The notes: generated by a model from the sequence alone, not told the origin. A stretch of 64,000 bases of DNA from an uncultured bacterium (GCA_965370555.1 CBDUVB010000004.1:15269-79268); one strand, 5' to 3'. Counted from the stretch's first letter, positions 34,670 to 61,396 are shown. Numbers and translations are program-made.

Positions 34670-34688
34670 AGAAACATTCCTTTTCCCG

Positions 34689-37212: not shown

Positions 37213-37235
37213 TTTGACATTGCCTCCTTGCTTTC

Positions 37236-39158: not shown

Positions 39159-39193
39159 TGATTCCTCCTTCTACTCGATCAACGTGTACCAAC

Positions 39194-40186: not shown

Positions 40187-40190
40187 GTTC

Positions 40191-41711: not shown

Positions 41712-41813
41712 GGTTACAAGAATCGGAATCTAGTCGGCATTCCTTCACTGAAGCAGGACCGCATTCTCGATCTTGCCTGCCCTTATAAGGGCAGGCAAGA
41801 TCGTCCTACCCTA

Positions 41814-42803: not shown

Positions 42804-42938
42804 TTGTCTCGCCTCCTTACTAAATTTCTATTTCTTCTCCTCGAACGTGTTTCCAACTTCTATACTTCCTCGTCAGTACTCACCTCCCTTGGGCCTCCAA
42901 CCCGGGTTTTCTGTGGAGAGGCTTAAGCTTTTTAAGTT

Positions 42939-44879: not shown

Positions 44880-44894
44880 GGCGATTCTCCTTTC

Positions 44895-45191
44895 TCATAG
44901 ATGCACAAGGATTTTGAACCCTTTCGTATCGCGCTCGTATGTGATCGCCCCGTATTGACATGCCTTGGCGCAGGCAGGATCTCCACCGCAGAGGTCACAC
45001 CCGATGGGGCAGATCATTGGTGCTGCATGTCCAGTGTGCACATCCCGCTCCATAACAATCATGGACTTCGCCGGGTTAAACAGGCTGTACTTCGCAAACG
45101 AACAGGCCAGTTGACAACTTCGGCAACCGCGACAGTTCAAGGGTTCAACCACTAAACCCCCCGTGGATTCTTGCAAACATCCCTCTAGCAT
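44895..45191 (-). CDS. 4Fe-4S dicluster ferredoxin-like protein
   Basis: CRGCRSCQLAC and CDLCGGDPACAKAC cysteine motifs. Lies immediately upstream of AOR copy 2. Confidence 0.8.
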   Translation of the reverse strand: MLEGCLQESTGGLVVEPLNCRGCRSCQLACSFAKYSLFNPAKSMIVMERDVHTGHAAPMICPIGCDLCGGDPACAKACQYGAITYERDTKGFKILVHL

Positions 45192-45255
45192 TAAACCACC
45201 TCTTCTCTTGATTTGGACAACCTATCTTTTTGCTTCTGGCTGATAGCACCTTACC

Positions 45256-46704
45256 CTAAGCCACGTTGAAGACGGGCCGAGGATCGGCAAAGAACCTAGG
45301 AAGTACCAGAATATCGGGGTGCTTCTTTCCGACAGTGTCAAGTGCAATCTCGAACGCCCGGTCAAAATCTTTTGCCGGCGTGAGCCCATGCTCACGAATC
45401 AATCCCGGTACAACGTCCCCAGCTATGATCGACTTGCGTGTCAGCTTCCAGTGGTGAGCTGCATCTCCGCACATGAAGATGCTGTGCTTGGGGCTAAACG
45501 CATAGTGATACTTGTACGCATGCAGGTACTCCGGATGGTGCCAGAAGTAGTCCGAGTGCGAAAAGAACTCCTCAAGGTCGTAGCACTCTCTGAAAAGTCT
45601 AAGTGCCTCGTGATCGGCCGGTCTGTGTTTGGAGATAATCCCTTTGCACTGTGACAACGATATAAGGACACCTCCTTCTCGCAGCAGCGGCTTGTCCCGC
45701 GCCATCCGCAAGACTTGGGACGACACGCCAAGAGTACCTGGATTATCGCTTGTGTCGTATGAAAGGTCGTGAGGAACCCCAGACACGACGATATCGAACT
45801 GAGGAATCTGAACCAGGAAACACTTGTCGGCATCTGGATACTCCCTTTTCTCCAACTCCGGGACGTGTCCACAATAGAAGGCTACGGCTTGATGGTCAGG
45901 TCCCAGGAGGGCGTCGACATAGAAGACTTTCTTTCCGATCTCTTGTTCAACCTTCCTGTGAACAGCAAGTTTATGCTTTCGGTAGATGTTGCGCTCGGGC
46001 AGGTATTCGGCGTTTAATACTGCTTTCGTCTTGTAGACCGAATGGCTATGCAATGAGTCGAGGGAGCGAGCCCCAGCAAGACCGATCGAAACACCTTGGC
46101 CAGCGTATCCTCCAAATCCCAGTGGGAAGATCGTGCCAACGTAGATTACCTGGTCGGCTTCGACGAGCACCTGATCGTACTCGACCTGATCGCCGAGGTC
46201 TGTTGCACCGAGATATACATTGCCCTCGGTACAGTCGTGATTGCGGATCCTGCTCTTCCCGCCGTCGAACGGGCAGAATCTCTTGTATAAGTCCTCGCCC
46301 AGGTGGGCTCGCAATTCCAGTGGGGTCATCTTGCGGTGTCCACCGATTGCACAAACCAACGAGATGTCCTCTTCGTTTACCCCTGTTTCTCGTAGCTGCT
46401 CAAGGACTATAGGGATGACATACTTAATTGGTTCGGGTTTCTTGAAACCGTCATCAAACGCAATGACTACTTTGTCTCCCCGTTTCACCAAGGCAGGAAG
46501 AGGCTCCATTCCAATTGGATTGGCCAGCGCATCGCGCACCGCCTGCTGCGGATTCGGGTGTACAGCGATCTCCGGGAATGCCGGGGTACCGTATTCAAGA
46601 ACCATCGCGTCACTTGGTACCGAGATATCCATCCAGGCAGTGCTGTATTGCATCCGAACCGTTTTAAAACCAGTCATATCACCAACCTTTCTAAGTTCTC
46701 CCAT
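45256..46704 (-). CDS. LarA-like (DUF2088, lactate racemase N-terminal domain) protein
   Basis: NPIGMEPLPALVKRGDKVVIAFDD...VCAIGGHRKMT resembles the LarA N-terminal domain including the His108-equivalent. The start could instead be the ATG at 46677. Confidence 0.75.
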   Translation of the reverse strand: MGELRKVGDMTGFKTVRMQYSTAWMDISVPSDAMVLEYGTPAFPEIAVHPNPQQAVRDALANPIGMEPLPALVKRGDKVVIAFDDGFKKPEPIKYVIPIVLEQLRETGVNEEDISLVCAIGGHRKMTPLELRAHLGEDLYKRFCPFDGGKSRIRNHDCTEGNVYLGATDLGDQVEYDQVLVEADQVIYVGTIFPLGFGGYAGQGVSIGLAGARSLDSLHSHSVYKTKAVLNAEYLPERNIYRKHKLAVHRKVEQEIGKKVFYVDALLGPDHQAVAFYCGHVPELEKREYPDADKCFLVQIPQFDIVVSGVPHDLSYDTSDNPGTLGVSSQVLRMARDKPLLREGGVLISLSQCKGIISKHRPADHEALRLFRECYDLEEFFSHSDYFWHHPEYLHAYKYHYAFSPKHSIFMCGDAAHHWKLTRKSIIAGDVVPGLIREHGLTPAKDFDRAFEIALDTVGKKHPDILVLPRFFADPRPVFNVA

Positions 46705-46784
46705 CCCAGTAACCCAGTCCCCATCTCCCGCACACCCAGAGACAATTCTCTACCCGGATGTCTCTTCCGAAGTGCTCCTCGCTG

Positions 46785-47153
46785 CTAGCGTCGCACAATC
46801 TCCAGTACGTTCCCTTCCGGATCCTTGAAGTATCCTATCTTCCAGCCGTTGCTCGTTTCTCTAACACCTTCGAGGGAAACCCCTTTTTGATTCAGATCAG
46901 TTTCGATCTCCTCAAAATCCTCTACGATCAACCCGATGTGACTGAATCCTGCATCATTCAGCTCTCGCGTTGGTCGAGATTCTTTGGTGGGAAGAATCTC
47001 AATTTCCCCACCCTCGTCAGCCGCCAGAAAGTAGATTGGTGGCCGGCCTTCCTTCTCGAGGGTCCTAACAACGGAAAACCCCAGCGTATTGCGATACCAA
47101 TCCGCTAAGGCCTTCGTATCATAAGCATAGACACCAAAGTGCTCGAGCTTCAT
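46785..47153 (-). CDS. VOC/glyoxalase family protein
   Basis: MKLEHFGVYAYD...FSHIGLIVEDFE...GYFKDPEGNVLEI pattern. Confidence 0.8.
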   Translation of the reverse strand: MKLEHFGVYAYDTKALADWYRNTLGFSVVRTLEKEGRPPIYFLAADEGGEIEILPTKESRPTRELNDAGFSHIGLIVEDFEEIETDLNQKGVSLEGVRETSNGWKIGYFKDPEGNVLEIVRR

Positions 47154-47160
47154 TGCCCAA

Positions 47161-47919
47161 TCACCCCTCTACATCCGCGAAGCCTGTGACCATCATTCCT
47201 TCTGCATCGGGCAGAAGAAGAGGAATCGCATAAGATCGAAGAAGTTTCTTGCCGAGAAGGGGCGCAAGGTTTGCGTCCTCCACGAGATAGAACTTCCGAC
47301 CTGCTTTGAGGAAAGCTTTGTGAACGGGGAACTGTGGGTCCAGGCCCTTGGCTTCGCCGATGTTCTCAATTCCCATCAGGTCGACACACACCCCTTTCAG
47401 GCTAAAGTCTTCCATCAGGTAGCGCGCGGCATCGACTGAGAAGCTCGGTTGTTGGTTGAGATACCGCTCCGGGTCGGTTTTCCGATACTGAGAGTATCCG
47501 GTACACACAAATAAAAAATCGCTTTGCTTAAGTGCAGCTGAATGAGGTTCGAGCTCTTCTACGAGGATCCGCTCCATGTCTCCCTTAGGAATCTCAAGGA
47601 GCATGGGTCGTTCGGAGATGAAGTCAGTGATTTCGAATGCTCCCATCTTGAATCCATCTGGGTCAACGTGGAAGTTCACATCCATGTGGGTTCCCGAATG
47701 CACAAACATGTGTACAAAACTCGTGTTGTTATACGACCCCCACCTCACCTCTTCAGGTCCTGCGTCTTGTGGCTTTCCGGCCATGCGTGATCGAGGGATT
47801 ACGCGCGGCGGATCTATCGGCCCTGGCATCTTGATTTGGTCTGGTTCCAGCAAGTATGAGAACTGAACTATCATCCCTTCCACCTCCGTAAAGATATCTT
47901 TTTGCTTCTTTTGTCTCAT
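47161..47919 (-). CDS. Cyclase family protein (kynurenine formamidase-like metal hydrolase)
   Basis: HSGTHMDVNFH motif and overall size. Confidence 0.75.
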   Translation of the reverse strand: MRQKKQKDIFTEVEGMIVQFSYLLEPDQIKMPGPIDPPRVIPRSRMAGKPQDAGPEEVRWGSYNNTSFVHMFVHSGTHMDVNFHVDPDGFKMGAFEITDFISERPMLLEIPKGDMERILVEELEPHSAALKQSDFLFVCTGYSQYRKTDPERYLNQQPSFSVDAARYLMEDFSLKGVCVDLMGIENIGEAKGLDPQFPVHKAFLKAGRKFYLVEDANLAPLLGKKLLRSYAIPLLLPDAEGMMVTGFADVEG

Positions 47920-47927
47920 TATCTTGC

Positions 47928-48278
47928 CTATTCAGGCTCGCTAAATTCCTCAATGGCCTCCATCACCAATTTCAAGTGTGATTGAGCGGGACCGCCGTCC
48001 ATGAGCACTGCTACGAAGGCTGCTTCCAAGATCTCTTCTGGCGTTGCTCCAAAGGAGAAAGCCGCTTGAGTATGGTAGGCGATACATTGCGTGCATCGCT
48101 TAGACAATCCGATGGCAAGCCCGATCAATGCCTTTTGCTTTTGAGAGAGTGCGCCCTCCTGACGAGCGACACCGGAAAAGTCTCGCCAAGCTCCAATGTA
48201 CTCGGCATACTTACCTTCAGCCAATGTGCTGTTAGTCTCCTGCATCTCCTCAAGCAGTTTTCGTAGCTCGGTTCCCAT
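47928..48278 (-). CDS. Carboxymuconolactone decarboxylase/AhpD-like family protein
   Basis: CTQCIAYH (CxxC-x2-H) motif in a ~115-aa all-alpha protein. Confidence 0.8.
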   Translation of the reverse strand: MGTELRKLLEEMQETNSTLAEGKYAEYIGAWRDFSGVARQEGALSQKQKALIGLAIGLSKRCTQCIAYHTQAAFSFGATPEEILEAAFVAVLMDGGPAQSHLKLVMEAIEEFSEPE

Positions 48279-48766: not shown

Positions 48767-49462
48767 ATGGCTCAAATCGAATCGATGAAGCCAGAACAAA
48801 TGGCTAAGGTCATCATCTCGTCCCTTATCGAGGCTAACGTGACCGCCGCTGACATCACCAAATTCGTTAACGAAGTAAAGCCTTACGGTTTTGCATCGCT
48901 GGCTGTGGATCTACCCTTTATTGACATTACCGTGGAATTGTTAAAGGATGTGTCTACCCGCGTGACGACCGTAGCGTCCTACCCCTTGGGGGGGATGACC
49001 AAAGACGTCAAGGTAAAGCAAGTCGAGTATGCGCGCGACCACGGAGCCTACGATATCGATGTCTCCATGAACTACCTTGCCATTAAGTCCGGTGATTTCG
49101 GGACAGTTGAGGAGGAGGTCCGGCAGATTATGAACGCTGCTAGCGATCTCAAGATCGTCATGATTCCTCAGGTCACCGTTCTCACCAATGACGAGAAGGC
49201 GAAGACGTGCGAGGCACTATTGAAAGGAGGCTGTAAAAATATCAAAACCGCTTCCGGTTTTGGCTGGAAGACAGAAGTGGAGGACGTCGTTTTTATCAAG
49301 CGGCTGTTCGGTGACGATATCCACATCGAAGTCTCGGGTGGGATTCGCACCCACCAAGACGCCATCGCTATGTTGAATGCTGGAGCTGAGCGAATCCATA
49401 CGAGCACCGCATTCCAGGTCATGGGGATGGATAAGACCTTGGCTTATCAAAAAAAGGAGTGA
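48767..49462 (+). CDS. DeoC/LacD-family aldolase paralogue, divergent group II (pair A)
   Basis: TIM-barrel DeoC-like pattern. IKTASGFGW keeps the Schiff-base Lys. IEVSGGIR has Glu where canonical DERA has its second Lys. Confidence 0.75.
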   Translation: MAQIESMKPEQMAKVIISSLIEANVTAADITKFVNEVKPYGFASLAVDLPFIDITVELLKDVSTRVTTVASYPLGGMTKDVKVKQVEYARDHGAYDIDVSMNYLAIKSGDFGTVEEEVRQIMNAASDLKIVMIPQVTVLTNDEKAKTCEALLKGGCKNIKTASGFGWKTEVEDVVFIKRLFGDDIHIEVSGGIRTHQDAIAMLNAGAERIHTSTAFQVMGMDKTLAYQKKE

Positions 49463-49467
49463 ACGCC

Positions 49468-50154
49468 ATGACGATCGATCGAAAAACCTTTGCCAAGACC
49501 ATTGACCATACCTACCTCAAGATTCACCGCAGTGACGCGGAAATCAAGCGTATTTGTTTCGAGGCAGAGAAGTACGGGTTCGCCTCTGTGGCAATCTTCC
49601 CTGTTGCGGTTCCCTTGGCTGCCTCGCTCCTAAAGGATACGGGCGTTGCTGTCTGTGCCGCCCTTGGATTCCACTTGGGTGCCTACCCTCCTGAAATAAA
49701 GGCATTTGAAACCGAAGATGCTATCGCAAAAGGGGCAACCGAGGTCGACTTAGTGATGAACGTAGCCGCGGCGAAAGCAAAAGACTGGGATCTGCTGAAA
49801 AGGGAATTTGAGCTGTTCCGGAAGGCAGCCGGGGACAAGATCGCCAAGATCATCCTAGAAACGTGCTTGCTTACCGATGATGAAAAGATCAAAGCGTGTG
49901 AACTCGCAAAAGAGATCGGCTTGGATTTCGTGAAAACGTCCACCGGCTACAAGAAAGGAGCGACCATTCCGGATGTCAAGCTCATGCATGAAACAGTAGC
50001 CCCTCAACTTAAGGTTAAGGCTGCCGGCGGCATAAGAACGTTGGAGGATGCCTTGGCAATGATCGAAGCAGGGGCTTCGCGCCTTGGCACCAGCGCGGGC
50101 GTCGCTCTAGTCAAAGCCTATGAAAAGAAGTTCGAGTCAGCGTTGAGCCAATAA
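49468..50154 (+). CDS. deoC: Deoxyribose-phosphate aldolase, canonical type (pair A)
   Basis: [24 protein letters not shown] and VKAAGGIR motifs. The ATG at 49468 has aaaaaggag upstream. The track start GTG at 49459 overlaps the upstream stop. Confidence 0.85.
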   Translation: MTIDRKTFAKTIDHTYLKIHRSDAEIKRICFEAEKYGFASVAIFPVAVPLAASLLKDTGVAVCAALGFHLGAYPPEIKAFETEDAIAKGATEVDLVMNVAAAKAKDWDLLKREFELFRKAAGDKIAKIILETCLLTDDEKIKACELAKEIGLDFVKTSTGYKKGATIPDVKLMHETVAPQLKVKAAGGIRTLEDALAMIEAGASRLGTSAGVALVKAYEKKFESALSQ

Positions 50155-50393
50155 TAACCGCTAGAACTATCTTCCCTGCCTTGGCTTGAGTTATCCAGCA
50201 CGCTGCTGTTGCGAGTACGGATGTCCACCTCGCACGGACATCGCAGAGCAGGCTCTCGCTCTCTAATGGATACCCTTCGCTCAATGCCGCCAACTCAGAG
50301 CTTGCAAGGGACATCCATAGGTCGCGTTACTACCTGGGTCTCAAATGAGGAGGCGGAGGAGTCCGACATGAAGGGGATAGCACTTCTCTTCTG

Positions 50394-51107
50394 TCACTTC
50401 TTCCGCAAAGAGGAGTGATAGATCGCCACACCAGCATCAGTCCCTATTCTACTCGCTCCGACCTTGATCATGGCCAAAGCATCCCCGTACGTACGAATTC
50501 CTCCCTGGGCCTTTACGCTCAATTGTGGCCCAGCAACTTCTTTCATCAAGCATATATCCTTACTCGAAGCTTGTCCTACACTCTGCGGATCAGTTGAGAC
50601 GATGCGGAAGCCAGTCGAATTTACTACAAAATCCATACCGACATCTCGAGCAAGCTGACAAGTGAGCTTCTTTTCTTCCTCGGTCAAATACATGCTTTCC
50701 AAGATCACTTTTGCAACGAGGGCCCCTGCGACATCACGAAACGACCGCATCTCGTGTTCTACTTCCTTCCATTGCCCGGCTCGGATTGCAGCCGAGTTGA
50801 GAACCATCTCCAGTTCGCCAACCCCCTGCTCTTTTGCCAGCGAAGCTTCACTAAGCTTAACCTCCAGCACCTGACCGCCAAATGGGAAACCAATCACGCT
50901 TGATGCCTTCACAGAGGAACCTGATAAGCAATCAACGGCTAGCGGCACGTTAATGGAGTGGACGACCACTGCAGCAAAGCCGTAGGTGTGTGCTTCCAGA
51001 CAAAGCTTCTCAACGTCAGCATAGCTCAGCTCCTTGCGAAGATCGGTGTGATCGATCTTTCCCACCAGTTCCTGCTTTGCCCTCCCTGAGTCAATCGTGT
51101 TTCTCAC
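50394..51107 (-). CDS. DeoC-family paralogue, canonical-like fold but Schiff-base Lys replaced (DFVVNSTGF) (pair B)
   Basis: IDHTDLR, ELEMVLNS (Asp to Glu), DFVVNSTGF (Lys to Val) and VKAQGGIR. GTGA overlap with the upstream gene. Confidence 0.75.
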   Translation of the reverse strand: MRNTIDSGRAKQELVGKIDHTDLRKELSYADVEKLCLEAHTYGFAAVVVHSINVPLAVDCLSGSSVKASSVIGFPFGGQVLEVKLSEASLAKEQGVGELEMVLNSAAIRAGQWKEVEHEMRSFRDVAGALVAKVILESMYLTEEEKKLTCQLARDVGMDFVVNSTGFRIVSTDPQSVGQASSKDICLMKEVAGPQLSVKAQGGIRTYGDALAMIKVGASRIGTDAGVAIYHSSLRKK

Positions 51108-51784
51108 AGGCGTTCCTCCATCGCGTGGTCAAGTATCTCGAAGACCCGGCTTGTATGAATTCTCCTCCCTCCTGCTTCAATCATGCGAATCGTTTCATCG
51201 TAGGTTCTGACACCGCCCGACACATCTACTTGAAACGCATCGCCAAAGTTTCTGCGGATGAAAAGCACATCTTCGATCGGCGTATTCCACCCATATCCAG
51301 AAGACGTCTTAATCGCTTTAACCCCACAGTTTGCAAAGACCTCAAGGGTACGCATCTTCTCGCCGTTGGTAAGAATAGCTGTCTCAGGGATAGGGACCAG
51401 CCGGATATCATCAGCTGCTGCATCCACCATGGCGCGGGTGTCCTTTTCCAGCGCCTTGAAATCCCCGGACTTGATCGCCGCAAAATGTGCACCCACATCA
51501 ATTTCTACAGCCCCCGCGGTGATAGCATAACGGATAGCAGCAACCTTTGTCTCGGTGGACTTGTTGCCAAGTGGATAAGCCGCTGCGGTTCCCACGCCAA
51601 TGCCGACTGACCCCAAAATATCAGCCGCCATGGCAATCCGCACTTGGTCGACAAACACGCCCGCAATGGGAGGATACCCAATCACTCGCTGCAGGAATGA
51701 GATAACCTCTGAGTCCGAAGCAGCAGGCATAAAGATCGCCCCCATCAGGCGTTGAGCAAGCTCTTCAACGGCAACATAGTTCAT
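51104..51784 (-). CDS. DeoC/LacD-family aldolase paralogue, group II (pair B)
   Basis: AIKTSSGYGW, VDVSGGVR, RIHTS. Confidence 0.75.
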   Translation of the reverse strand: MNYVAVEELAQRLMGAIFMPAASDSEVISFLQRVIGYPPIAGVFVDQVRIAMAADILGSVGIGVGTAAAYPLGNKSTETKVAAIRYAITAGAVEIDVGAHFAAIKSGDFKALEKDTRAMVDAAADDIRLVPIPETAILTNGEKMRTLEVFANCGVKAIKTSSGYGWNTPIEDVLFIRRNFGDAFQVDVSGGVRTYDETIRMIEAGGRRIHTSRVFEILDHAMEERL

Positions 51785-51800
51785 GAAGCTTCCTCCACCA

Positions 51801-53306
51801 TCACAACGACAAAGAGAGAAGTCTCTCCTTGGAGAAGTCAGCCTTATTAAGCGTTCCGGTTACTTTCCCATCACGCATGACAACAATTCTATCACACATT
51901 CGTATAGTTGCCTCGATGTCCGATGAAACCAAGATAACGCCGCTGTCTTTGCCACAAAACGCACGAAGTATGGCATGGACCTCGAATTTAGCTCCGACGT
52001 CAATCCCCGCGGTTGGTTCATCAGCAATCAGCACCTTCGGATTGGTCAAGAGCCATTTTGCGAGACATACTTTTTGCTGGTTTCCTCCGCTCAAAGTAGC
52101 CACACGCTGCTTGGTAGACCTAGTCACTACATTCAGCTTCCTGCTCCAAAACGTGCCTTCTTTCTCAATGACTCCATGTTGCAGCATCCCCCTTCTTATG
52201 AAACGACTAAGAACGGCGGACACGATGTTCTGCTCAATGGTCATATCAAGGAACAGGCCTTGTTCACGTCTGTCCTGGGGAAGATACCCAATACCCAACC
52301 TCATAGCATCCCTAAGACCTCTAATTCGAATTGGAGTCCCTTCCAAGTTGAGCTCACCTCTTTGCGGGGTTTCCAGACCGAATAGGCACCTGGCCACCTC
52401 TTTTACACCGGACCCAAGCAAACCGAAAAAGCCCAGTATTTCTCCTCGATGAAGCTGGAAACTCACGTCAGAGAAGGAGCTATACACAGTCATAGAACGA
52501 ACATCTAGAAGGCTTCCGCTTTCATCGTTGACGGAGGGGGGCATCGTTTCTCGTTCCTCGAAGTGATCTAACTGTTCCTGTCCCACCTGCAACCTGATGA
52601 TCTGGTCCCGAGAGGTAGTCTCGGTTTTGTAGGTTCCTACATACCTCCCGTCCCGAAGAACGGTGATGCGGTCAGAGATCTCGAATACTTCATCGAGCCG
52701 ATGCGTGATGTAGATAATTGTCGTGCCAGCATCACGCAGCTTTCTCAGAAGCCGGAACAGCTCCTGGACTTCCTTCGCGGGCAATGTAGAGGTGGGCTCG
52801 TCCAGGATGAGAATCTTAGCTTCCTGACGAAGCGCTTTCGCGATCTCAACAATTTGTTTTTGCGCCACGTTCAGATTCTCCACCATCGTGCCAGGATCCG
52901 CGGCTACCCTAAGCACTTCCAGCAGTTCTTTGCTTCGCTGATTCATCGTTCGGTAATCGATTAATCCTAGTCTAGAGGTTGGTTCACTGCCGGCAAAGAC
53001 GTTTTCACTCAGTGTCAGATCGTTTGCCAGACTGAACTCTTGGTAGACCATGTGAATCCCAGCCGACATTGCGTCAGCGTAACTACTGAAGGAAATTGGA
53101 TGGCCTTCAATATGAATCTCGCCTTGTCTTAGAACATAGTTCCCGGTGAGCAGCTTCATCAGCGTACTCTTGCCCGCACCGTTTTCACCAACAATAGCAT
53201 GGATCTCACCAGGATCGATGGAAAAGGAGACATGATCGAGAGCGCGCACTCCCGGGAAGCCTTTTGTCACATCCACGAACCGGATAATCTCACTCGGCGC
53301 AACCAT
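51801..53306 (-). CDS. Sugar ABC transporter ATP-binding protein (tandem ABC domains)
   Basis: GENGAGKST and LSGGNQQKV motifs. I prefer the ATG at 53306 (ggtgagga upstream). It overlaps the PfkB stop by 17 nt. Confidence 0.9.
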   Translation of the reverse strand: MVAPSEIIRFVDVTKGFPGVRALDHVSFSIDPGEIHAIVGENGAGKSTLMKLLTGNYVLRQGEIHIEGHPISFSSYADAMSAGIHMVYQEFSLANDLTLSENVFAGSEPTSRLGLIDYRTMNQRSKELLEVLRVAADPGTMVENLNVAQKQIVEIAKALRQEAKILILDEPTSTLPAKEVQELFRLLRKLRDAGTTIIYITHRLDEVFEISDRITVLRDGRYVGTYKTETTSRDQIIRLQVGQEQLDHFEERETMPPSVNDESGSLLDVRSMTVYSSFSDVSFQLHRGEILGFFGLLGSGVKEVARCLFGLETPQRGELNLEGTPIRIRGLRDAMRLGIGYLPQDRREQGLFLDMTIEQNIVSAVLSRFIRRGMLQHGVIEKEGTFWSRKLNVVTRSTKQRVATLSGGNQQKVCLAKWLLTNPKVLIADEPTAGIDVGAKFEVHAILRAFCGKDSGVILVSSDIEATIRMCDRIVVMRDGKVTGTLNKADFSKERLLSLSL

Positions 53307-54294
53307 GTTGATCCTCACCTGATTGTCCAGTGCTCATTAGTCTCTCTATTGAAGAAAGCGATGCTTCCCCGAAGTTCTCCGGGCTTGTGCAGCACAGTGC
53401 CCCACAGGCATTCGCAAAACGCGCGATCCTCGTTTCCGACCAGCCATTGATGTACCCGAACGCAAAGCCAGCGTGGAATGCATCGCCAGCACCAGTTGTA
53501 TCCACCACCTTGACCTTAAAGCCGGGGACCATTATCTCAGAGCGCTCGTTACGGATCAGGCAGCCATCCGGCCCCAGCGTGACCGCAACAAGGCAAGGCC
53601 CGGCTCCAAGGAATCGACCGGCAATCGCGCTTGGATCCGAGAGCTCTGTGTATTCTTCCATTGCAATGTACGAACCCGACAGCGCGTCGCACAATCGAAC
53701 CACTTCCCCCACTTGCTCTTTGGTCCCAAACCCCCCGGTCCCTGGACAAGCGGCGGAATCGAAATCGAGAATCACCTGCACCCCATTCTGTTTTGCGATA
53801 GTAGCCGCAGCCAAGACACTATCGAGCGGAAATTGACTCACCTCGACCAGAAGGAAGCTTGCCTTCGATATGGGGGCAGCAAAGCAACTAGTAACTTGCT
53901 CGGGAGTGATCCGAACCGTATCTCCCAAATCGCAGTAACCAGTGCGTTCACCAGAAGGGTCTGTGAGAACCCAGCAGTAAGAGGATATTCCCTCAGTCAG
54001 TACTCTCACATGGCTTGTCATTACGTGCACCTTCTTGAGGGCCTTAAGGAGGGCGTTCCCAATCTCATCATCTCCCAACACCCCCAACCATGCAACTCTC
54101 AAGCCTAGTCGGGCAAGCTGGGCAAGGGAGTCCACAGTAACCCCACCTGGTCGGACGGTCATCTTGCTGATCGATCCCTTCTCGCCCGGGCCCAGGATTC
54201 TTGGGACACGAGCCATGTAGGCCATTACACAATTTCCTAAACCCACAACTTCGCTCTTCCCACAATCTTTGCTTTCGACCCTCTCAGATACCAT
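53290..54294 (-). CDS. PfkB-family carbohydrate kinase (ribokinase-like)
   Basis: DTTGAGDAF motif and the N-terminal VVGLGN...GGVTVDS pattern. Confidence 0.85.
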   Translation of the reverse strand: MVSERVESKDCGKSEVVGLGNCVMAYMARVPRILGPGEKGSISKMTVRPGGVTVDSLAQLARLGLRVAWLGVLGDDEIGNALLKALKKVHVMTSHVRVLTEGISSYCWVLTDPSGERTGYCDLGDTVRITPEQVTSCFAAPISKASFLLVEVSQFPLDSVLAAATIAKQNGVQVILDFDSAACPGTGGFGTKEQVGEVVRLCDALSGSYIAMEEYTELSDPSAIAGRFLGAGPCLVAVTLGPDGCLIRNERSEIMVPGFKVKVVDTTGAGDAFHAGFAFGYINGWSETRIARFANACGALCCTSPENFGEASLSSIERLMSTGQSGEDQHGCAE

Positions 54295-54382
54295 CCTTAT
54301 TTACAACTCCTTCATTTGTGCACGACACAAAATCTCTGTCACATGCCTCACCAGCTAAGTCTTGGGCCTATCGAAAATCAAC

Positions 54383-55033
54383 TCAGGGTTCCTGCCATGA
54401 GACGCTGTCTTCGTAGAAACGCTCAGCTGCGCGGCGAGCCCGTCGATCTGCGCAGATTTCTTGCACCACCTCTAATTTGACAGCCCCAAAGTGCGCTCCC
54501 GCTTTCCAGGCTGCGTATAGGTCATGTGTATTTCGGATGCTCGCCACCACAACCCGAATTGAAAGGTCGTGTATTCTCGTTAGATCAACGACATCTCGCA
54601 CAACCTGTTCAGCATCTCCTCCACAATCCCGTATGCGGGCCAAATAAGGAGCGACAAAGCTCGCTCCAGCCCGAGCAGCTAGTAACGCTTCGTTAGCTGA
54701 GAAGACAGCCGTCGCTGCGGTTCGAATTTGATCTTTTGAAAGGATGTAGATTGCTCGAATCCCGGCTTCAGTAGCGGGTATCTTTACAATGACCCGAGCT
54801 GGGTTGATCGCAGAGAAAGTCCGGGCTTCTTTGAGGATCTCCGATGTGCTCAAACTAGCTACCTGGACAAAAACGGGGTCTGGAATTATGTTGAGAACCT
54901 GTTTTAGCATCGCCTCAGTCCTAACACGTTTTTTCGCCACAACAGAAGGATTGCTGGCCACACCGCTGAAGACCCCAAAAGTGTAACCCTCTCGTATCTC
55001 TTCAATATCCGCTGAGATAAGGAGCAGCTTCAT
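54383..55033 (-). CDS. Fructose-6-phosphate aldolase/transaldolase type 3B family protein
   Basis: Collinear with E. coli FsaA as I recall it: GVASNPSVV, VIVKIPATEAG (Schiff-base Lys), FVAPYLARI. 216 aa. Confidence 0.85.
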   Translation of the reverse strand: MKLLLISADIEEIREGYTFGVFSGVASNPSVVAKKRVRTEAMLKQVLNIIPDPVFVQVASLSTSEILKEARTFSAINPARVIVKIPATEAGIRAIYILSKDQIRTAATAVFSANEALLAARAGASFVAPYLARIRDCGGDAEQVVRDVVDLTRIHDLSIRVVVASIRNTHDLYAAWKAGAHFGAVKLEVVQEICADRRARRAAERFYEDSVSWQEP

Positions 55034-55072
55034 CTCCCCTCCTCATGACGATCCGTAGACTGGACCAAGGAG

Positions 55073-55846
55073 CTAGGCCGATTCCGCAAGGACGTCCCCT
55101 TCTTTGAACGAGCGGAGGAAGTCTGCCACTCTGACCACAGCTTCCTTGACTAGCCGTTCCCCCTTCTGCGAGGTCGCGAGCGTCGGATCCCCTATAACTC
55201 CAGAACGGCTGTACTTTGAGAACTTCCTCGGAATCGAAATTTTGGGCGGCGTAACAATGTCAAGCCAGCTAAACTTCGATCTGGGGAAACTAATCTCTTT
55301 AACAGCCTTTTCAATTCTCATGCCCTCAAAATTAAGAAATAGAGCGATAGACGTTTCGAACTCACCCGCGTGTGACATGCCACCTGGAAACTCTGACTCT
55401 CGGATCTCCTCAGCAACGTCTGAAATCAGATCGTAGTAACTCGTTGCCGCACAGAGTGCTTCGGTACGCTCGGCAAGCATGTGTGCGGCGGCGGAAAGCG
55501 CCGGTTTGTTCCAGCCATGGCCGTTCAAAAGCACTACCCTGCAAAATCCTGTCTTGACAAGGCTTTCACATACATCAAGTAAATAGTGTGTTAAAGTTAT
55601 CAGCTTTACAGAGACCGTTCCAGGAAACATGAGCTCTTTTTCGTTGTATCCAAAACTTACCGTCGGAGCCACAATATCCCCCGTAACTTCAGTCGCCTGT
55701 GTAGCAATATATTCAACGATAAGACTATCGGTTCCAACAGGGAGATGAGGACCATGCTGTTCAATTGACCCCACCGGGACAACCATTATTGCATTTCTTC
55801 TAAGTGCCGCTTCGACATCTTGCGATGTCAGAGCAACCAATCTCAT
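55073..55846 (-). CDS. Creatininase-family amidohydrolase
   Basis: VPVGSIEQHGPHLPVGTD and HAGEFETS motifs. The ATG at 55846 has ggaaggagg upstream. Confidence 0.85.
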   Translation of the reverse strand: MRLVALTSQDVEAALRRNAIMVVPVGSIEQHGPHLPVGTDSLIVEYIATQATEVTGDIVAPTVSFGYNEKELMFPGTVSVKLITLTHYLLDVCESLVKTGFCRVVLLNGHGWNKPALSAAAHMLAERTEALCAATSYYDLISDVAEEIRESEFPGGMSHAGEFETSIALFLNFEGMRIEKAVKEISFPRSKFSWLDIVTPPKISIPRKFSKYSRSGVIGDPTLATSQKGERLVKEAVVRVADFLRSFKEGDVLAESA

Positions 55847-55956
55847 GAAACCTCCTTCCAAGATTCGGTTTCTAAGAACAATCTAGCAGTTCTCTGGCGG
55901 TGGTGGAGGCTGGCTAAAAGCCAGTCTCCACCACCGTGACCATACACTCAGTTACG

Positions 55957-56952
55957 TTACTCCGTCCCTCCAAGGTATCCTTCTATATTCTCTTGCGTGA
56001 CAACCATGCAACCGGGATCAATGTACACAGGAGTTGGAGCAACACCCAATGTATCCCAATCTTCATCGGGGTTGTGAAGCCAAGAACTGTGCACAGCATT
56101 GTATGCTGCTACTACTGCCCAAAAGCCCATGTTGTAAACGTTCTGCACAACCAAAGCATCAATTGTCCCTTCTTTAAGTAACTGAAGGGCTGGTGATGTT
56201 GCATCCATCGACACACCAGCGATTCTATCCACGGTGCCTGTTTCTACAAGGGCTGCACCAATTGCGATAGCAGCAGTAGCATGAGCACCGTATATTCCTA
56301 CAAGATTAGGATGTGATGCGATCAACTGCATCAACTGTGTCTGTCCCAACTGCGCTTGGCCCTCGTCGTTAATGCGCGCGATTACCTCAAGGTCGGGGTA
56401 TTTCTCCTCGACTTGCTTTGTAAAACCATTAGCGCGAAGTTCAAGATTGCCCCCACCAGGCACATACTCTATGACGACCTCACCCGAGATCTCTCCCGTT
56501 TTTCTAAGGACAGCTTCCGCCAACGCGTCTGCAGCCATTCTCCCAAGTTTCTCCTGATCAGATCCAATAAAGCAAAATCTTTTGCTTTCAGGACTGTCAG
56601 CATCTGTAATAACTACGGCAATCCCCCTCTCAACAGCCTGATTGTGAACGTACAAGACTCCCTCTGGAGTCGCTGCTGCAGCTCCTGAAGTAATTATGGC
56701 ATCTGGGCCCAAAGCAATCACGTACTCAATAGATTTTACCACCCCTTCGGCTGTGTAATCAAGTGAACCTGTGACTTTGATATCCACTCCCAGCCATTCT
56801 CCAGCATCTTTCGCCCCTTTGATCTCAGGCTTCCAGTAGTCATGCTCCGGCCAGACGAAAACGAGATAGTACGTTTCGCTTGCGAAAGCCCAACCCCCAA
56901 ACAACGCTAATAGACATGCAAAAGCTGTTAGATAAAGCGCAATTTTTTTCAT
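55957..56952 (-). CDS. Sugar ABC transporter substrate-binding protein
   Basis: The ATG at 56952 gives MKKIALYLTAFACLLALFGGWAFA, a signal peptide. Periplasmic binding protein type I pattern. Confidence 0.8.
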   Translation of the reverse strand: MKKIALYLTAFACLLALFGGWAFASETYYLVFVWPEHDYWKPEIKGAKDAGEWLGVDIKVTGSLDYTAEGVVKSIEYVIALGPDAIITSGAAAATPEGVLYVHNQAVERGIAVVITDADSPESKRFCFIGSDQEKLGRMAADALAEAVLRKTGEISGEVVIEYVPGGGNLELRANGFTKQVEEKYPDLEVIARINDEGQAQLGQTQLMQLIASHPNLVGIYGAHATAAIAIGAALVETGTVDRIAGVSMDATSPALQLLKEGTIDALVVQNVYNMGFWAVVAAYNAVHSSWLHNPDEDWDTLGVAPTPVYIDPGCMVVTQENIEGYLGGTE

Positions 56953-57073
56953 GCTACTTCCTCCTTTCGTAAAAGAAAATCTCACTTACGCCTCCCTACT
57001 TGCGACAATCATTCTTGATCTGCAATCACCTCCTTCCTCATGTTTGTAATTCTCCACCTATATACCCCCAGCC

Positions 57074-58120
57074 TTATCTCGCCATGGCCTCTCGGCGTTT
57101 GGACAAAATCTTGTCTACTACAACAGCAAGAAGTAGGAACGAACCAAGAACCACTTTCTGCCACACAACGGATACGCCTAACAGAATCAACGCATTATTC
57201 ACTAGACCCATGAAGAGCACGCCAAGACTTGCCCCAAGAATGGTCCCTCTACCTCCGTCTAAACTGACACCGCCGATCAGCGCTCCAGCAATCACTCGAA
57301 ATTCGGTTCCTACTCCATAGTTAGGCTGAACCGAACTAAGCCGACTTGCCATGAGGACCCCGGCCAACGCAGCCAGCGAGCCTGAGATGACCATTGAAAC
57401 GAAGCGGACGCGGTTTACCGCGATTCCAGAGAACCTGGCTGCATTCTCATTCGAGCCAACAAAGTAGAGCTGATGAAAGAAACGAACCTTCTTCATCAAG
57501 AAACTGAACACAGCAAGTATGACTAACATAATAACAATGGGAACTGGTATGGGCCCAAGCGTACCGCGGCCAAGAATACTGAAGACCTTAGGGAAGCCGG
57601 TAACTGGTACTCCCCTCGTAATAACAAAGGCTAAACCTCTGGCCACGTTGAACATGCCAAGGGTGACAATGATCGCCTTTATACCCAGCTTGGTCACAAA
57701 GAAACCATTAGCGCAACCAACTACGCCACCGGAACCAATTGCAAGAAGCACCGCCAAGAATGGATTCATACCTGCTCGAATGAGGGTCCCCACTACAGCT
57801 GCCCCTAGCCCAAGCACAGAGCCCACAGAGATATCCAAGCCTCCCAGAATGAGGCCCATCGTCACGCCCACCACGATGATTGCGTCAAGAGAGATCCCAA
57901 CAAAGAGGGCTCTCAGATTCATGGAGGTAAGGAAAAACGGGCTCACCAAAGAGAGGCTAATAAATGCCAGCGCGATAACCAAGATGATCGCGGACTCCCT
58001 CATTCTCACTACACGAGTGAAAGAAGTCTTCAACGACGTAGCGCCAGACGCAGCTTTTTCTTTCCACCTGTTAGAAGCAGATTTCTTTGGCATGCTGCCA
58101 TTGCCGGACTGATCCTCCAA
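57074..58120 (-). CDS. Sugar ABC transporter permease (CUT2)
   Basis: Polytopic membrane protein. TTG start at 58120 supported by aaggagg 6 nt upstream. Confidence 0.85.
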   Translation of the reverse strand: MEDQSGNGSMPKKSASNRWKEKAASGATSLKTSFTRVVRMRESAIILVIALAFISLSLVSPFFLTSMNLRALFVGISLDAIIVVGVTMGLILGGLDISVGSVLGLGAAVVGTLIRAGMNPFLAVLLAIGSGGVVGCANGFFVTKLGIKAIIVTLGMFNVARGLAFVITRGVPVTGFPKVFSILGRGTLGPIPVPIVIMLVILAVFSFLMKKVRFFHQLYFVGSNENAARFSGIAVNRVRFVSMVISGSLAALAGVLMASRLSSVQPNYGVGTEFRVIAGALIGGVSLDGGRGTILGASLGVLFMGLVNNALILLGVSVVWQKVVLGSFLLLAVVVDKILSKRREAMAR

Positions 58121-58149
58121 GCTTTACCTCCTTATGTTGCTGTCTCCGT

Positions 58150-58833
58150 CTACAGATTTGAGATCAAGCACGATAACTTCGCGGCTGGGATCCCGATGAG
58201 TCCTGCTCCATGTCGAATAAGGGCTTCGATATCCGCGCCCAATTCGCCTGCGCAAACGGCTTTCAATAAAACAGAGTCACCCAACATCCTCCTCAACAGC
58301 GCAACCTCCTCTGTAGAAGGTCCTTGCTCGCTTAGGAATCCCGTCGATGTGCTGATATAGTCCACTTGCAGATCCATCGCTAACTTGCACAGGGCCTTCT
58401 TTTCTTCATTAGTTAGATGATCAATCTCCAAGACGAGTCCCGATACTTTCCCCCGGCAGACACTGACGAATCGCTCGATCTCTTCACCTATAAGCTTGTA
58501 ATCGCCCTCAGCAAGCACGTCCGCGTTCAGGACCATCTCCGCCGCATTGGCCCCCCTCTCGAAGGCTTCTTCTGCCTCCAGTATCTTCGCCTCAATCGGC
58601 CACGCGCCAAATGGATAACCAATCAAAGCCGTTACACAGATACTCGCTCCCCTAAGTTGAGTGAGTACACGGGGTATGAGCTGAGGGGCCACACTGATGC
58701 CCGCTAACTCGTGCAGAGTAATCTCCTGGCAGTACCGCTCGAGTTCTGCGTATGAATTTCCCATTCCACTGACTATGACATCGGTGCGGCTACACCATTC
58801 GCGTCTGCTAGAGTGCATCACATCGAATCCCAT
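58150..58833 (-). CDS. Degenerate DeoC-family paralogue lacking the Schiff-base Lys (DYISTSTGF) (pair C)
   Basis: AAEMVLNA (Asp to Glu), DYISTSTGF (Lys to Ser), and LLKAVCAGEL in place of VKAxGGIR. Start uncertain (ATG at 58833, 58818 or 58764); the first two overlap the upstream gene. Confidence 0.65.
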   Translation of the reverse strand: MGFDVMHSSRREWCSRTDVIVSGMGNSYAELERYCQEITLHELAGISVAPQLIPRVLTQLRGASICVTALIGYPFGAWPIEAKILEAEEAFERGANAAEMVLNADVLAEGDYKLIGEEIERFVSVCRGKVSGLVLEIDHLTNEEKKALCKLAMDLQVDYISTSTGFLSEQGPSTEEVALLRRMLGDSVLLKAVCAGELGADIEALIRHGAGLIGIPAAKLSCLISNL

Positions 58834-59509
58834 CCAATGCCAGCAGTTGGGAAGAGTCCCCGGAGTGGATACGATCCGCTCCGGCACTTAGCATAGCCGT
58901 GGCCTGTTCAGGTGTTCGGATGCCGCCCCCTGCCTCAATGCTAAGTACCTCCCCGAACTCTTTCTTGAGCAGAGCGACGGCGGCGACGGTTGTATTCCAA
59001 CCATACCCCCACGAGGTACAGATTGGTTTCCCACCACCTCTTACAATCGCTTCGCACACCCTAATCTTCTCCTCATCATCCAGGATGGCTGTTTGAGGGA
59101 CGAACACAAGTCGGATTGCTTTTGCAGCCTCTCCAATAAGTACCTTTACCTCTTCTTCAACTGATCGGTAGTCATGCGACTTCACCGCGCTGTAGTTGAG
59201 GCCAACATCCATCTCATCAACTCCCATTTCAATCGCTTCTTTGATGTGAACGACCTTGATCCTTGTTGTCATGGTTCCGAATGGATGTGCTGTTGGTACC
59301 CCAAGAGATATTGCACTTCTTTCGAGTAACTCTCGTGCCAATGGAACCCGCGTAAGATCGACAAACACGGCAGCAAAAGGATATTCTTTTGCCCATAGGA
59401 TAAATCTACGGAGTTTCTCCTTAGTTATACCCGGGCTTATGAAAGCCAGCACCAGTTTATCAACAAACCTATAAATTAGTAACGCCTCCACATTCCGTTC
59501 ATGCCACAT
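58808..59509 (-). CDS. DeoC/LacD-family paralogue, group II, Lys replaced by Cys (PICTSWGYGW) (pair C)
   Basis: Collinear with 48767..49462 and 51104..51784, but reads ICTSWG instead of IKTxSG. IEAGGGIR and RIHSG also present. Confidence 0.7.
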   Translation of the reverse strand: MWHERNVEALLIYRFVDKLVLAFISPGITKEKLRRFILWAKEYPFAAVFVDLTRVPLARELLERSAISLGVPTAHPFGTMTTRIKVVHIKEAIEMGVDEMDVGLNYSAVKSHDYRSVEEEVKVLIGEAAKAIRLVFVPQTAILDDEEKIRVCEAIVRGGGKPICTSWGYGWNTTVAAVALLKKEFGEVLSIEAGGGIRTPEQATAMLSAGADRIHSGDSSQLLALDGIRCDAL

Positions 59510-59712
59510 GAATTGGTCTCACCTAGCTACCATCTTACCAGCGCAAACGTTAAATTGCCATCCAGTAATGCTATAATGATGGACTAACAACATTATATAT
59601 TATTCCCATTACATTGTCAAGCAATCTGCCCCCGAAGACTTGTCCACCTGGAGTAAGAGAAACCAGTAGGATAGACGAGCAAGAAGACGATCATGGGATT
59701 AACGATGCAGAA

Positions 59713-60030
59713 AAGGCAGCCGGGGACAAGATCGCCAAGATCATCCTAGAAACGTGCTTGCTTACCGATGATGAAAAGATCAAAGCGTGTGAACTCGCAA
59801 AAGAGATCGGCTTGGATTTCGTGAAAACGTCCACCGGCTACAAGAAAGGAGCGACCATTCCGGATGTCAAGCTCATGCATGAAACAGTAGCCCCTCAACT
59901 TAAGGTTAAGGCTGCCGGCGGCATAAGAACGTTGGAGGATGCCTTGGCAATGATCGAAGCAGGGGCTTCGCGCCTTGGCACCAGCGCGGGCGTCGCATTG
60001 ATAGAGACCTACGACAGGCGATTTGGCTAA
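59713..60030 (+). pseudogene. 3'-half copy of deoC (duplicate of 49822..50105 plus divergent tail)
   Basis: 59713-59996 is identical to 49822-50105 (284 bp). The N-terminal 33 codons of ORF 59614..60030 are unrelated to DeoC, and the barrel's first half (IDHT, EVD motifs) is missing. Confidence 0.8.
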
Positions 60031-60036
60031 GGAGCC

Positions 60037-60690
60037 TTATTCTGCGTCTTCCAGCACTGAGTAAGGGGTCGACGTATGGATGAAGTTTGTCCCCAGTTCC
60101 AACAACTCAGCGGCCTGTGCCGTGGTCCGGATGCCACCCGAGGCTTCGATCGATAGATCGTTCCCAAACTCTCTTCTCAGAAGGGTGATATCCTCCGGCC
60201 TGCACAGGCTGCCATGCCCGTTGGTTTTCACTGCGGTAACCCCCCCTTCTAAGATGACGTGGCAGACCTTCAATTTTTCTTCGTTGGTCAGAACGTACAA
60301 CTGAGGAATCACGATCACGTCGAGATTATCGCCCGCTGCCTCGACCATGCGCTTTATCTCATCCAAGACAGTGGAGAAATCGCCTGACTTTATCGCATTA
60401 AAATTAAGTGCCGGATTGATCTCGTCTGCACCTACTTTGATGGCGAACGCTATTTGATCAAGCCGTGTTTCTAGGGTCATTCCCCCAAGGGGATAAGAAA
60501 CGGGAGCGGTGAGCAATACCTCAGTTCCCTCGAAGAGCTCTTTGGCAAGCTCGAGATAGGGTGCATCAACGGCGTAAGCGACAAACGGATATTGCTTCGC
60601 CCGTTCGATGGCCTGCCTGACCTCGTTTTCCGTCAAGTCTGTTCGCTGAATGCCCGTCTTGATCGTCCGTGCTAGAGCCTGTTTCTTCAT
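60037..60690 (-). CDS. DeoC/LacD-family aldolase paralogue, group II (pair D)
   Basis: AVKTNGHGS, IEASGGIR and FIHTS motifs. Strong RBS aaaggagaagga. Confidence 0.75.
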   Translation of the reverse strand: MKKQALARTIKTGIQRTDLTENEVRQAIERAKQYPFVAYAVDAPYLELAKELFEGTEVLLTAPVSYPLGGMTLETRLDQIAFAIKVGADEINPALNFNAIKSGDFSTVLDEIKRMVEAAGDNLDVIVIPQLYVLTNEEKLKVCHVILEGGVTAVKTNGHGSLCRPEDITLLRREFGNDLSIEASGGIRTTAQAAELLELGTNFIHTSTPYSVLEDAE

Positions 60691-60721
60691 TCCTTCTCCT
60701 TTGGTCAGATGCCGCTCGTCC

Positions 60722-61396
60722 TTACTCTCTTAAGCCTTCGATAATGGCAATCCCCGCACTGGTGCCAAGCCTGGTTGCCCCTGCCTCGATCATGGCGAGT
60801 GCGTCTTTCGTATTTCGTATGCCACCCGATGCTTTGACGCCCATCTCTCCCCCAACTGTTTGTCTCATGAGCTTGATGTCTTCAACAGTTGCGCCCTTCT
60901 CGCCAAATCCAGTTGAGGTTTTCACGAAGTCTATCCCTGCCTCTTTGGCAATCTGACAAGCGATTATCTTCTCTTCGTCGGTGAGCACACAGGTTTCCAG
61001 GATCACCTTGGTTACGATATCACCCGCTGTTTCCTTGATCGCTCGCATCTCGTCCTTGACTAGGCCATAATTGCCGGCTTTGAACATCCCGACATTCATG
61101 ACAAAATCGATCTCTTCGGCTCCCTTTTTTATCGCGTCCTTGGTTTCGAAGACCTTCCCCTCGATCGTAAACGCGCCGGTGGGGAAACCAATGGCAGCAT
61201 CGACTTTGACCGTTGATCCCTTCAATAGCTTGACAGCAAGCGGTATGTTGACCGGATGGATGGCCAATGAAGCGAATCCATACTTAGTGGCTTCCAAGCA
61301 GAGCCTTCGTATATCGCCATACGACGCATCCACATGTAGCTCCGTGTGATCAATCATGTTCGCTAAGGTATTCTTGTCAAGCTCTCTTACTTCCAT
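60722..61396 (-). CDS. deoC: Deoxyribose-phosphate aldolase, canonical type (pair D)
   Basis: [24 protein letters not shown] and VKASGGIR. Confidence 0.85.
   Translation of the reverse strand: MEVRELDKNTLANMIDHTELHVDASYGDIRRLCLEATKYGFASLAIHPVNIPLAVKLLKGSTVKVDAAIGFPTGAFTIEGKVFETKDAIKKGAEEIDFVMNVGMFKAGNYGLVKDEMRAIKETAGDIVTKVILETCVLTDEEKIIACQIAKEAGIDFVKTSTGFGEKGATVEDIKLMRQTVGGEMGVKASGGIRNTKDALAMIEAGATRLGTSAGIAIIEGLRE

Follow-up and report, generated by a model that had tools for sequence, protein, structure and literature searches.

Deoxyribose-phosphate aldolase (DERA, DeoC family) has been heavily studied and engineered, with statin side chains and nucleoside analogues as products. Aldolases that are accompanied by a non-catalytic paralogous partner are known from the class II tagatose-bisphosphate aldolases GatY/GatZ and KbaY/KbaZ. 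LsrF, LacD and FbaB make up a further branch of Pfam family PF01791, and the lsr operon includes an FGGY kinase, a ribose-type ATP-binding cassette (ABC) importer and a small α+β protein; we know of no heterotypic pairing involving LsrF. The DERAs described are reported to be dimers or tetramers with well-conserved catalytic residues (PMC8403123), and Trypanosoma brucei AdoMetDC/prozyme is a heteromer of an enzyme and a catalytically dead paralogue (PMC5201418). The stretch of DNA analysed here (64 000 nucleotides from an uncultured bacterium, GCA_965370555.1 CBDUVB010000004.1:15269-79268; hereafter the window, with positions counted from its first letter) encodes eight intact open reading frames (ORFs) of the DeoC/DERA family, 217–245 amino acids in length, within positions 48767–61396. 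They are arranged as four pairs, A to D, each combining a DERA-like protein (group I) with a divergent one (group II), and we propose with moderate confidence that each pair encodes a two-subunit sugar-phosphate aldolase of the DERA family (class I, TIM-barrel). All eight ORFs reported in an initial annotation of the window were recovered, and a ninth, truncated copy was additionally present:

A2: 48767..49462, plus strand, group II DeoC-family barrel (TIGR00126, residue signature, AlphaFold2 model)
A1: 49459..50154 (likely start ATG 49468), plus strand, canonical DERA-type group I protein (TIGR00126, junction)
B1: 50394..51107, minus strand, group I variant without the Schiff-base lysine and with an 8-residue insertion (alignment)
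B2: 51104..51784, minus strand, group II protein (TIGR00126, residue signature)
C1: 58150..58833 (start uncertain; longest form to 58887), minus strand, degenerate group I protein (alignment)
C2: 58808..59509, minus strand, group II variant with cysteine at the Schiff-base lysine position (alignment)
Ninth copy: 59614..60030, plus strand, truncated DeoC copy between pairs C and D (repeat comparison)
D2: 60037..60690, minus strand, group II protein of the D type, with 'KT-NGHG', downstream of D1 (TIGR00126, residue signature)
D1: 60722..61396, minus strand, canonical DERA-type group I protein, upstream of D2 (TIGR00126, junction)

Family membership was tested with the NCBIfam model TIGR00126 (deoC; curated cut-off 117.3 bits), which matched all eight ORFs, with scores of 247 (A1), 271 (D1), 194 (B1) and 111.7 bits (C1) in group I and of 145 (A2), 115.6 (B2), 123 (C2) and 127 bits (D2) in group II; B2 and C1 were slightly under the cut-off and the other six ORFs above it. 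The gathering score of the Pfam DeoC model (PF01791) was exceeded by A1, D1 and B1 only, and neither Pfam nor NCBIfam holds a separate model for group II, B1 or C1. Membership of the LsrF/LacD branch was ruled out, as only the deoC model was matched and not the LsrF, LacD or FbaB models, and membership of the GatZ/KbaZ family was likewise ruled out, all Pfam and NCBIfam matches being to DeoC. Class-specific hidden Markov models (HMMs) split the eight proteins cleanly into two classes, with one member of each class in every pair, and pairwise identity was 27–56 % within a class and 21–33 % between classes. The division into two classes and the heterotypic make-up of every pair, both put forward in the initial annotation, are thus borne out.

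The active sites were compared at seven positions numbered on E. coli DERA (D16/Y49/D102/K137/K167/K201/G236). The reference used is what we take to be the E. coli sequence, and its D102, K167 and K201 fall at the correct alignment columns. The residues found were as follows:

A1 and D1: D-x-D-K-K-K-G (F at position 49 in A1), the canonical DERA set
B1: D-H-E-K-V-K-G, with K167V, D102E and the motif 'FVVNSTG'; no Schiff-base lysine
C1: D-A-E-G-S-K-G, with D102E, K137G, K167S and the motifs 'YISTSTG' and 'LKAVCAGE'; GGIR phosphate loop lost
A2: I-D-D-V-K-E-H, group II
B2: M-D-D-V-K-D-H, group II
D2: K-D-N-I-K-E-H, group II, D type
C2: V-D-D-V-C-E-H, group II, with cysteine at position 167 and the motif 'ICTSWGYGW'

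Only A1 and D1 possess the full D102/K167/K201 set together with the GGIR loop. The Schiff-base lysine (K167) is present in A1, D1, A2, B2 and D2 and replaced in B1 (V), C1 (S) and C2 (C). The motifs by which the classes had been recognized apply only in part: those of group I (IDHT, FVKTSTG and VKAxGGIR) were confirmed in A1 and D1 and are altered in B1 and C1, and that of group II (IKTxSGxGW) breaks down in C2, where the cysteine takes the place of the Schiff-base lysine.

Position 201 is occupied by glutamate or aspartate in all four group II proteins and in about 100 relatives. This is one of several replacements in what appears to be a rebuilt site (K201 to Glu/Asp, K137 to Val/Ile, position 49 to Asp, G236 to His and E141 to Gln), and the GG(I/V)R phosphate-binding loop is retained. 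Residues that are invariant and specific to group II include an aspartate at the end of strand 2, a glutamine after strand 5 and a histidine in strand 8. In an AlphaFold2 (AF2) model of A2 (predicted local distance difference test score, pLDDT, 92.8; predicted template modelling score, pTM, 0.89) the invariant residues map to the C-terminal ends of β-strands 2, 5, 6, 7 and 8, which form the catalytic face. A Foldseek search of the PDB with this model gave DERAs for all of the top 40+ matches, with template modelling (TM) scores of 0.84–0.93 (the best 0.88–0.93 at 32–34 % identity), and group II is accordingly predicted, from A2 as the protein modelled, to have the (α/β)8 fold of DERA. K201 is reported to be critical for DERA activity (PMC6244999, PMC8403123); because it is replaced, group II cannot be an ordinary DERA. 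Group II, B1 and C1 fail the defining catalytic features of DERA and should therefore not be annotated as EC 4.1.2.4.

The two genes of each pair are closely spaced. At the pair A junction there is either a GTGA overlap or, if translation starts at ATG 49468, which lies 9 nt from a preceding AAGGAG, a 5-nt gap, and the latter is more likely. B2 and B1 overlap by 4 nt (GTGA), with GGAGGA 6 nt upstream, and in pair D, where the order is group I followed by group II, a 31-nt spacer contains AAGGAG. The junctions of pairs A, B and D are as first reported; the overlap given for pair C depends on the start of C1, for which there are three candidates (GTG 58887, ATG 58833 and ATG 58764), none with a clear Shine–Dalgarno (SD) sequence, giving either an overlap or a 43-nt gap. 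The gene caller picked the shortest form of C1 (204 amino acids) on the near-identical contig L029, a form that would drop β-strand 1. This tight coupling (4-nt overlaps and spacers of up to 31 nt with an SD sequence) is counted in favour of the two-subunit reading. Within the truncated ninth copy, positions 59713–59996 form a 284-nt direct repeat that is 100 % identical to 49822–50105 (the 3′ half of A1); this fragment is either a gene or recombination remnant or an artefact of metagenome assembly.

Homologues of A2 formed about 90 clusters, nearly all metagenomic, and carried either no name in the databases or the name 'deoxyribose-phosphate aldolase'. The genome closest to A2 was a Candidatus Bipolaricaulota metagenome-assembled genome (MAG; 90 % identity), other hosts being MAGs labelled Thermotogae, Aerophobetes and NC10 as well as Enterocloster and Lachnospiraceae. 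Because only about 20 clusters (50 % identity) outscored ordinary DERAs in an exhaustive profile search, group II proper is a small family. A second, larger family without K201 (group II′; signature D-E/S-D-K-K-M-A, 116 clusters) was found in cultured Firmicutes (Enterocloster, Anaerotruncus, Christensenella and Tepidanaerobacter) and in MAGs assigned to Actinobacteria, Proteobacteria, Chloroflexota and NC10. Sequence and fold searches of the PDB revealed no solved structure of the K201-less II or II′ type.

Pairing with a second DeoC gene extended across these phyla. In 24 non-redundant genome/contig pairs, every group II ORF had a DeoC partner on the same strand beside it, and II′ adjoined a canonical DeoC gene in every locus examined. 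An independent metagenome census comprised 68 loci with 73 distinct II/II′ ORFs (overlap lengths were taken from the longest ORFs, and overlaps are therefore overstated). An adjacent same-strand DeoC-family partner was present for 63/63 ORFs that had room on both sides, the other 10 being located at contig ends. The co-occurrence of group II with DeoC genes, for which a neighbourhood survey had been suggested, was thus universal in the loci examined. Group II might also have proved to be a known, functionally independent family that is not generally adjacent to DERA-like genes; this is contradicted by the data, its members matching DeoC/TIGR00126 only and always being partnered.

The genes around the pairs were variable. 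Pairs were accompanied by ABC systems and FGGY or PfkB kinases in Bipolaricaulota, by a Gat-type phosphotransferase system (PTS) and a short-chain dehydrogenase/reductase (SDR) in Enterocloster and Anaerotruncus, by an Rbs-like ABC system, a mutarotase and a PfkB kinase in Christensenella, by an FGGY kinase in a Solirubrobacteraceae MAG, and by a different type of ABC system in an Acetobacteraceae MAG. The DeoC pair therefore moves as a unit across differing transport and kinase contexts. Triplets also occurred, in the order II-II-I in contig L003 and I-II′-degenerate in contig L026. In the latter, a Christensenella-type contig, positions 6242–8319 encode a canonical group I protein, a II′ protein and a 210-amino-acid degenerate DeoC-like ORF (N-F-C-K-L-E). 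This array is preceded by genes for a DeoR regulator and an Rbs-like ABC system, then by a mutarotase-like gene and one for a PfkB kinase, a layout like that of a deoxyribose-utilization operon.

Neighbour-joining (NJ) bootstrap analysis supported II′ (99.5 %), a clade IIb consisting of B2 with a protein from L020 (100 %), a clade IIc (91 %) and the clade of lysine-less B1 proteins (94 %). Support for a common origin of II and II′ was 2–4 %, i.e. their relationship was not resolved by this method. The derived residues that both possess (the SYPLGGM loop, Q85, S108, an acid at position 49 and the loss of K201) suggest that they may have a single origin.

In addition to separate genes, natural fusions of two DeoC barrels were identified. 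P0250 (466 amino acids), found on two contigs (L023/L024 8001–9401), has an N-terminal domain that is nearest to II′, with K167 present and histidine at 201, and a canonical group I C-terminal domain; its domain order equals the gene order of pairs in which II′ precedes I. P0253 (476 amino acids), found on three contigs (L030 7001–8431, L031 and L032) beside an FGGY kinase, combines an N-terminal domain that has K167 and methionine at 201 with a C-terminal domain that has glutamate at 167 and keeps K201. P0251 likewise contains two DeoC domains, one canonical and one degenerate. The two independent fusions are indications, of the Rosetta-stone kind, that both barrels work together. In a MAFFT alignment every single-domain homologue aligned to the C-terminal domain of P0250, and an AF2 model of P0250 from single sequence (pLDDT 40.7, pTM 0.30) was uninformative on the packing of the barrels.

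Some further features of these proteins were noted. P0251 has 1288 amino acids and carries a large N-terminal membrane-associated region ahead of its two DeoC domains. The surroundings of P0250 include sulfatases, a TauE exporter, a LarA-like gene and TIM, and those of P0253 a DUF7973 protein as well as the FGGY kinase. Many profile-search matches of 430–560 amino acids (e.g. P0259, P0262, P0267 and P0270) have a C-terminal canonical DeoC domain behind an uncharacterized region of about 200–280 amino acids.

The two classes differ in which member degenerates. Group II kept K167 in 62/62 census pairs, the only exception found anywhere being the separate C type (C2 and its relatives), which has cysteine. 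The partner was degenerate at D102/K167/K201 in 11/62 census pairs; position 167 was occupied by E, V, G or A, in varying combinations of replacements, and all 11 of these partners were paired with D-type group II proteins. Since K167 is kept in group II and has repeatedly been lost in the partner, group II is the conserved element of the pair. Variant proteins were themselves conserved: in P0122 (82 % identity) and P0123 (60 %), both orthologues of B1, E102 and V167 are retained, as is the overlap with a paired IIb gene, and P0257, which is 43 % identical to C2, keeps the cysteine and is translationally coupled to a gene for a transaldolase/fructose-6-phosphate aldolase (TAL/FSA)-type enzyme upstream and a degenerate DeoC gene downstream. 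Ratios of non-synonymous to synonymous substitution rates (dN/dS) were 0.06–0.10 for the A and D pairs (0.06–0.08 for A1 against L007 and L008), 0.21 for C2 (compared with a close relative whose operon is ordered identically) and 0.16 for C1 against its L029 orthologue (97 % identity). Both partners are thus under purifying selection.

If each pair is one aldolase, group II would be its constant and probably catalytic subunit, with a rebuilt Lys-Glu/Asp-His site that would still bind a phosphate ester. In pairs A and D the canonical group I protein would contribute a second active site, or the complex would carry out two related cleavages, and in pairs B and C group I would serve as a lysine-less structural or substrate-binding subunit. 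We infer the roles of the two subunits from sequence only, and the physical heteromer, the identity of the catalytic subunit, the aldolase chemistry and the substrate class are inferred as well.

Several points weigh against this proposal. Adjacency, translational coupling and fusion also occur for enzymes of consecutive steps, and both partners of pairs A and D look catalytically competent, so that two independent enzymes would fit these pairs equally well. With glutamate at position 201, the pKa of K167 would be predicted to increase and not to decrease. Neither partner of pair C has a lysine at position 167; Schiff-base aldolase chemistry therefore cannot apply to it as such, and it is accounted for by no Schiff-base model. 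Pair C may be accessory to the TAL/FSA-type enzyme encoded nearby and not itself an aldolase. Finally, the mirror-tree comparison of the two classes (Mantel r = 0.79, reached by 0/5000 permutations) is confounded, as the signal is explained by shared vertical inheritance of the locus, and is not counted in favour of an interaction.

A possible but less probable alternative is that the partners are independent enzymes of one pathway that catalyse consecutive or parallel steps and form no stable complex, their linkage being explained by co-regulation; an example would be a canonical DERA together with a specialized enzyme (aldolase, isomerase or epimerase) whose substrate is a related sugar phosphate. 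Both partners of A, D and all II′ pairs retain K167 and the phosphate loop, group II has a conserved, remodelled active site of its own, fusion and coupling are found among sequential enzymes too, and the II-II-I and I-II′-degenerate triplets are compatible with separate activities. However, the partners that lack both the lysine and Asp102 (B1, C1 and the 11/62 of the census) cannot be Schiff-base aldolases, yet they are intact and constrained, and every group II gene flanked by enough sequence to judge had a partner, which would be unusually strict for sequential enzymes.

The initial annotation pointed to GatY/GatZ as a precedent. By implication, group I would be the catalytic DERA, and group II would be a paralogue without catalysis that acts as a chaperone or regulator. 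This arrangement is improbable. It would agree with the loss from group II of K137 and of K201, which is critical in DERA, and with the fully canonical A1 and D1, but K167, the phosphate loop and the new polar active-site residues are conserved in group II, it is the group I partner and not group II that has repeatedly lost K167, and no canonical DERA site is left in B-type pairs. The obligate pairing of two barrels proposed at the outset is supported (63/63 in the census, all genome loci and the fusions), and the division of roles implied with it is not supported and appears to be reversed, K167 being kept in 62/62 group II proteins and lost in B1, C1 and 11/62 partners. That the pairs are redundant tandem duplicates or decaying paralogues from local amplification of a sugar island is very improbable: the ninth copy, 100 % identical to A1, indicates recent recombination or duplication at the locus and C1 is highly degenerate, but the classes share only 21–33 % identity and each spans phyla, dN/dS was 0.06–0.21 in all members tested, C1 included, and heterotypic pairing was universal in other genomes.

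The two-subunit proposal also has a bolder form, which we regard as speculative and rather unlikely. The pairs would be widespread heteromeric class I aldolases in which catalysis has shifted to the K201-less Lys-Glu/Asp-His barrel and the canonical barrel acts as a scaffold. The substrates of such enzymes may be sugar phosphates that are non-deoxy or substituted in other ways, whose cleavage would give for example glycolaldehyde-type donors for the adjacent aldehyde:ferredoxin oxidoreductases (AFORs), and pair C would be a non-Schiff-base enzyme or accessory to a transaldolase-family enzyme.

Pair A is the main exception to a minus-strand orientation that nearly all genes share from 32.9 kb to the end of the window. 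The genes surrounding the pairs were identified with Pfam and NCBIfam models, except for the two upstream of pair D, which were assigned by similarity to annotated neighbours, and the promoter, which comes from a consensus scan only:

51801-53318, minus strand, ABC ATPase
53290-54294, minus strand, PfkB kinase (sub-threshold, ribokinase/IolC-like)
54383-55033, minus strand, TAL/FSA-type aldolase
55073-55861, minus strand, creatininase-family protein (IolN-like, 93 bits against a cut-off of 245)
55957-56985, minus strand, binding protein
57074-58120, minus strand, ABC permease
59592..59620, minus strand, sigma-70-like promoter match (TTGACA-17-TATAAT) upstream of C2
61460-62479, minus strand, ABC permease (BPD_transp_2-like) upstream of pair D
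62682-63974, minus strand, ABC ATPase (ABC_tran-like) upstream of pair D
32883..48278, minus strand, accessory block divergent from pair A, with the members below
Starts at 47928, 47161 and 46785, minus strand: CMD, cyclase and glyoxalase
45256-46704, minus strand, LarA-like nickel-pincer (hydroxyacid) isomerase
42939-44879 and 37236-39158, minus strand, two AFOR copies
Starts at 41814, 40191 and 39194, minus strand: binding protein (41814-42803), ATPase and permease
35680-37212, minus strand, FGGY kinase (barely above the XylB cut-off)
Starts at 34689, 33683 and 32883, minus strand: DHDPS-like protein, 2-hydroxyacid dehydrogenase and HAD protein

An ABC transporter beside each pair, as originally described, was found for pairs B, C and D; pair A adjoins pair B only and is about 6 kb from another ABC system. 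The genes between pairs C and B (51801..58120) share one orientation, and L029 has the identical order. The sigma-70-like promoter match just upstream of C2 is perfect and probably marks the start of an operon that runs from C2 to B1; these 10 genes (about 9.1 kb), which begin and end with a DeoC pair, may be one transcription unit. The creatininase-family protein hints at a possible ring-opening step on a cyclitol or lactam-like substrate. Matches of NCBIfam models to the neighbour genes, among them a RhaS/LsrB-like one for a binding protein, were mostly sub-threshold and assigned no substrate, and an Rfam scan of the whole window gave no riboswitch or other match. The accessory block also flanks pairs in Bipolaricaulota-type contigs (L001, L004–L006 and L020).

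The TAL/FSA gene accompanies the cysteine-type pair C in all three loci seen (54383-55033 in the window, 1070-1768 in L022 and 4847-5497 in L029). The L022 copy and the C2 homologue share a 4-nt overlap.

A recurring order of importer or PTS, sugar kinase, DeoC pair and AFOR was observed. This order fits a route by which a phosphorylated (deoxy)sugar is split into a triose phosphate and an aldehyde, with the latter then being oxidized. Under the two-subunit proposal, (deoxy)sugars would be imported by the adjoining ribose-type ABC systems and phosphorylated by the adjoining PfkB or FGGY kinases, and the aldehyde product would be oxidized by the neighbouring AFORs. Given the four pairs together with three ABC importers and two AFORs, the host appears to have a large uncharacterized sugar-to-aldehyde-to-acid fermentation module.

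In agreement with the initial annotation, no description of paired or heteromeric DeoC proteins was found in searches of open-access papers, including the DERA reviews PMC6244999 and PMC8403123. A conserved form of DERA made up of two genes would constitute a new functional subfamily, with a re-wired site in one barrel and an often lysine-less partner, and would correct hundreds of automatic 'deoxyribose-phosphate aldolase' annotations, among them some in the cultured human-gut Firmicutes Enterocloster, Anaerotruncus and Christensenella. It could also offer new donor or acceptor chemistry for biocatalysis and a natural case of subunit specialization and pseudoenzyme evolution in the TIM-barrel family.

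Compared with the systems already described, the pairs resemble AdoMetDC/prozyme in that a paralogue stripped of catalytic residues would be retained as an obligate partner, although fold and chemistry are unrelated and the roles proposed here are read from sequence. GatY/GatZ and KbaY/KbaZ similarly place an aldolase next to a divergent paralogue that is missing part of the catalytic apparatus. These belong to an unrelated, metal-dependent class II family and provide an analogy only; in the pairs described here the divergent partner keeps the nucleophilic lysine, whereas the canonical-looking partner degenerates. The lsr operon has a similar overall operon logic, a SnoaL-like gene being present in L001 and L004, whereas the window proteins, at about 220–230 amino acids, are barrels of DERA size, unlike LsrF, LacD and FbaB. 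DERA itself is the closest relative, with the same fold and family, the full catalytic set in A1 and D1, and a catabolic context beside sugar kinases that resembles deoK-type deoxyribose operons. In contrast to the DERAs described, a second, divergent barrel without K201 and K137 (II′ keeps K137) is always encoded alongside, the DERA-like partner is often without K167, and four such pairs are found within 13 kb.

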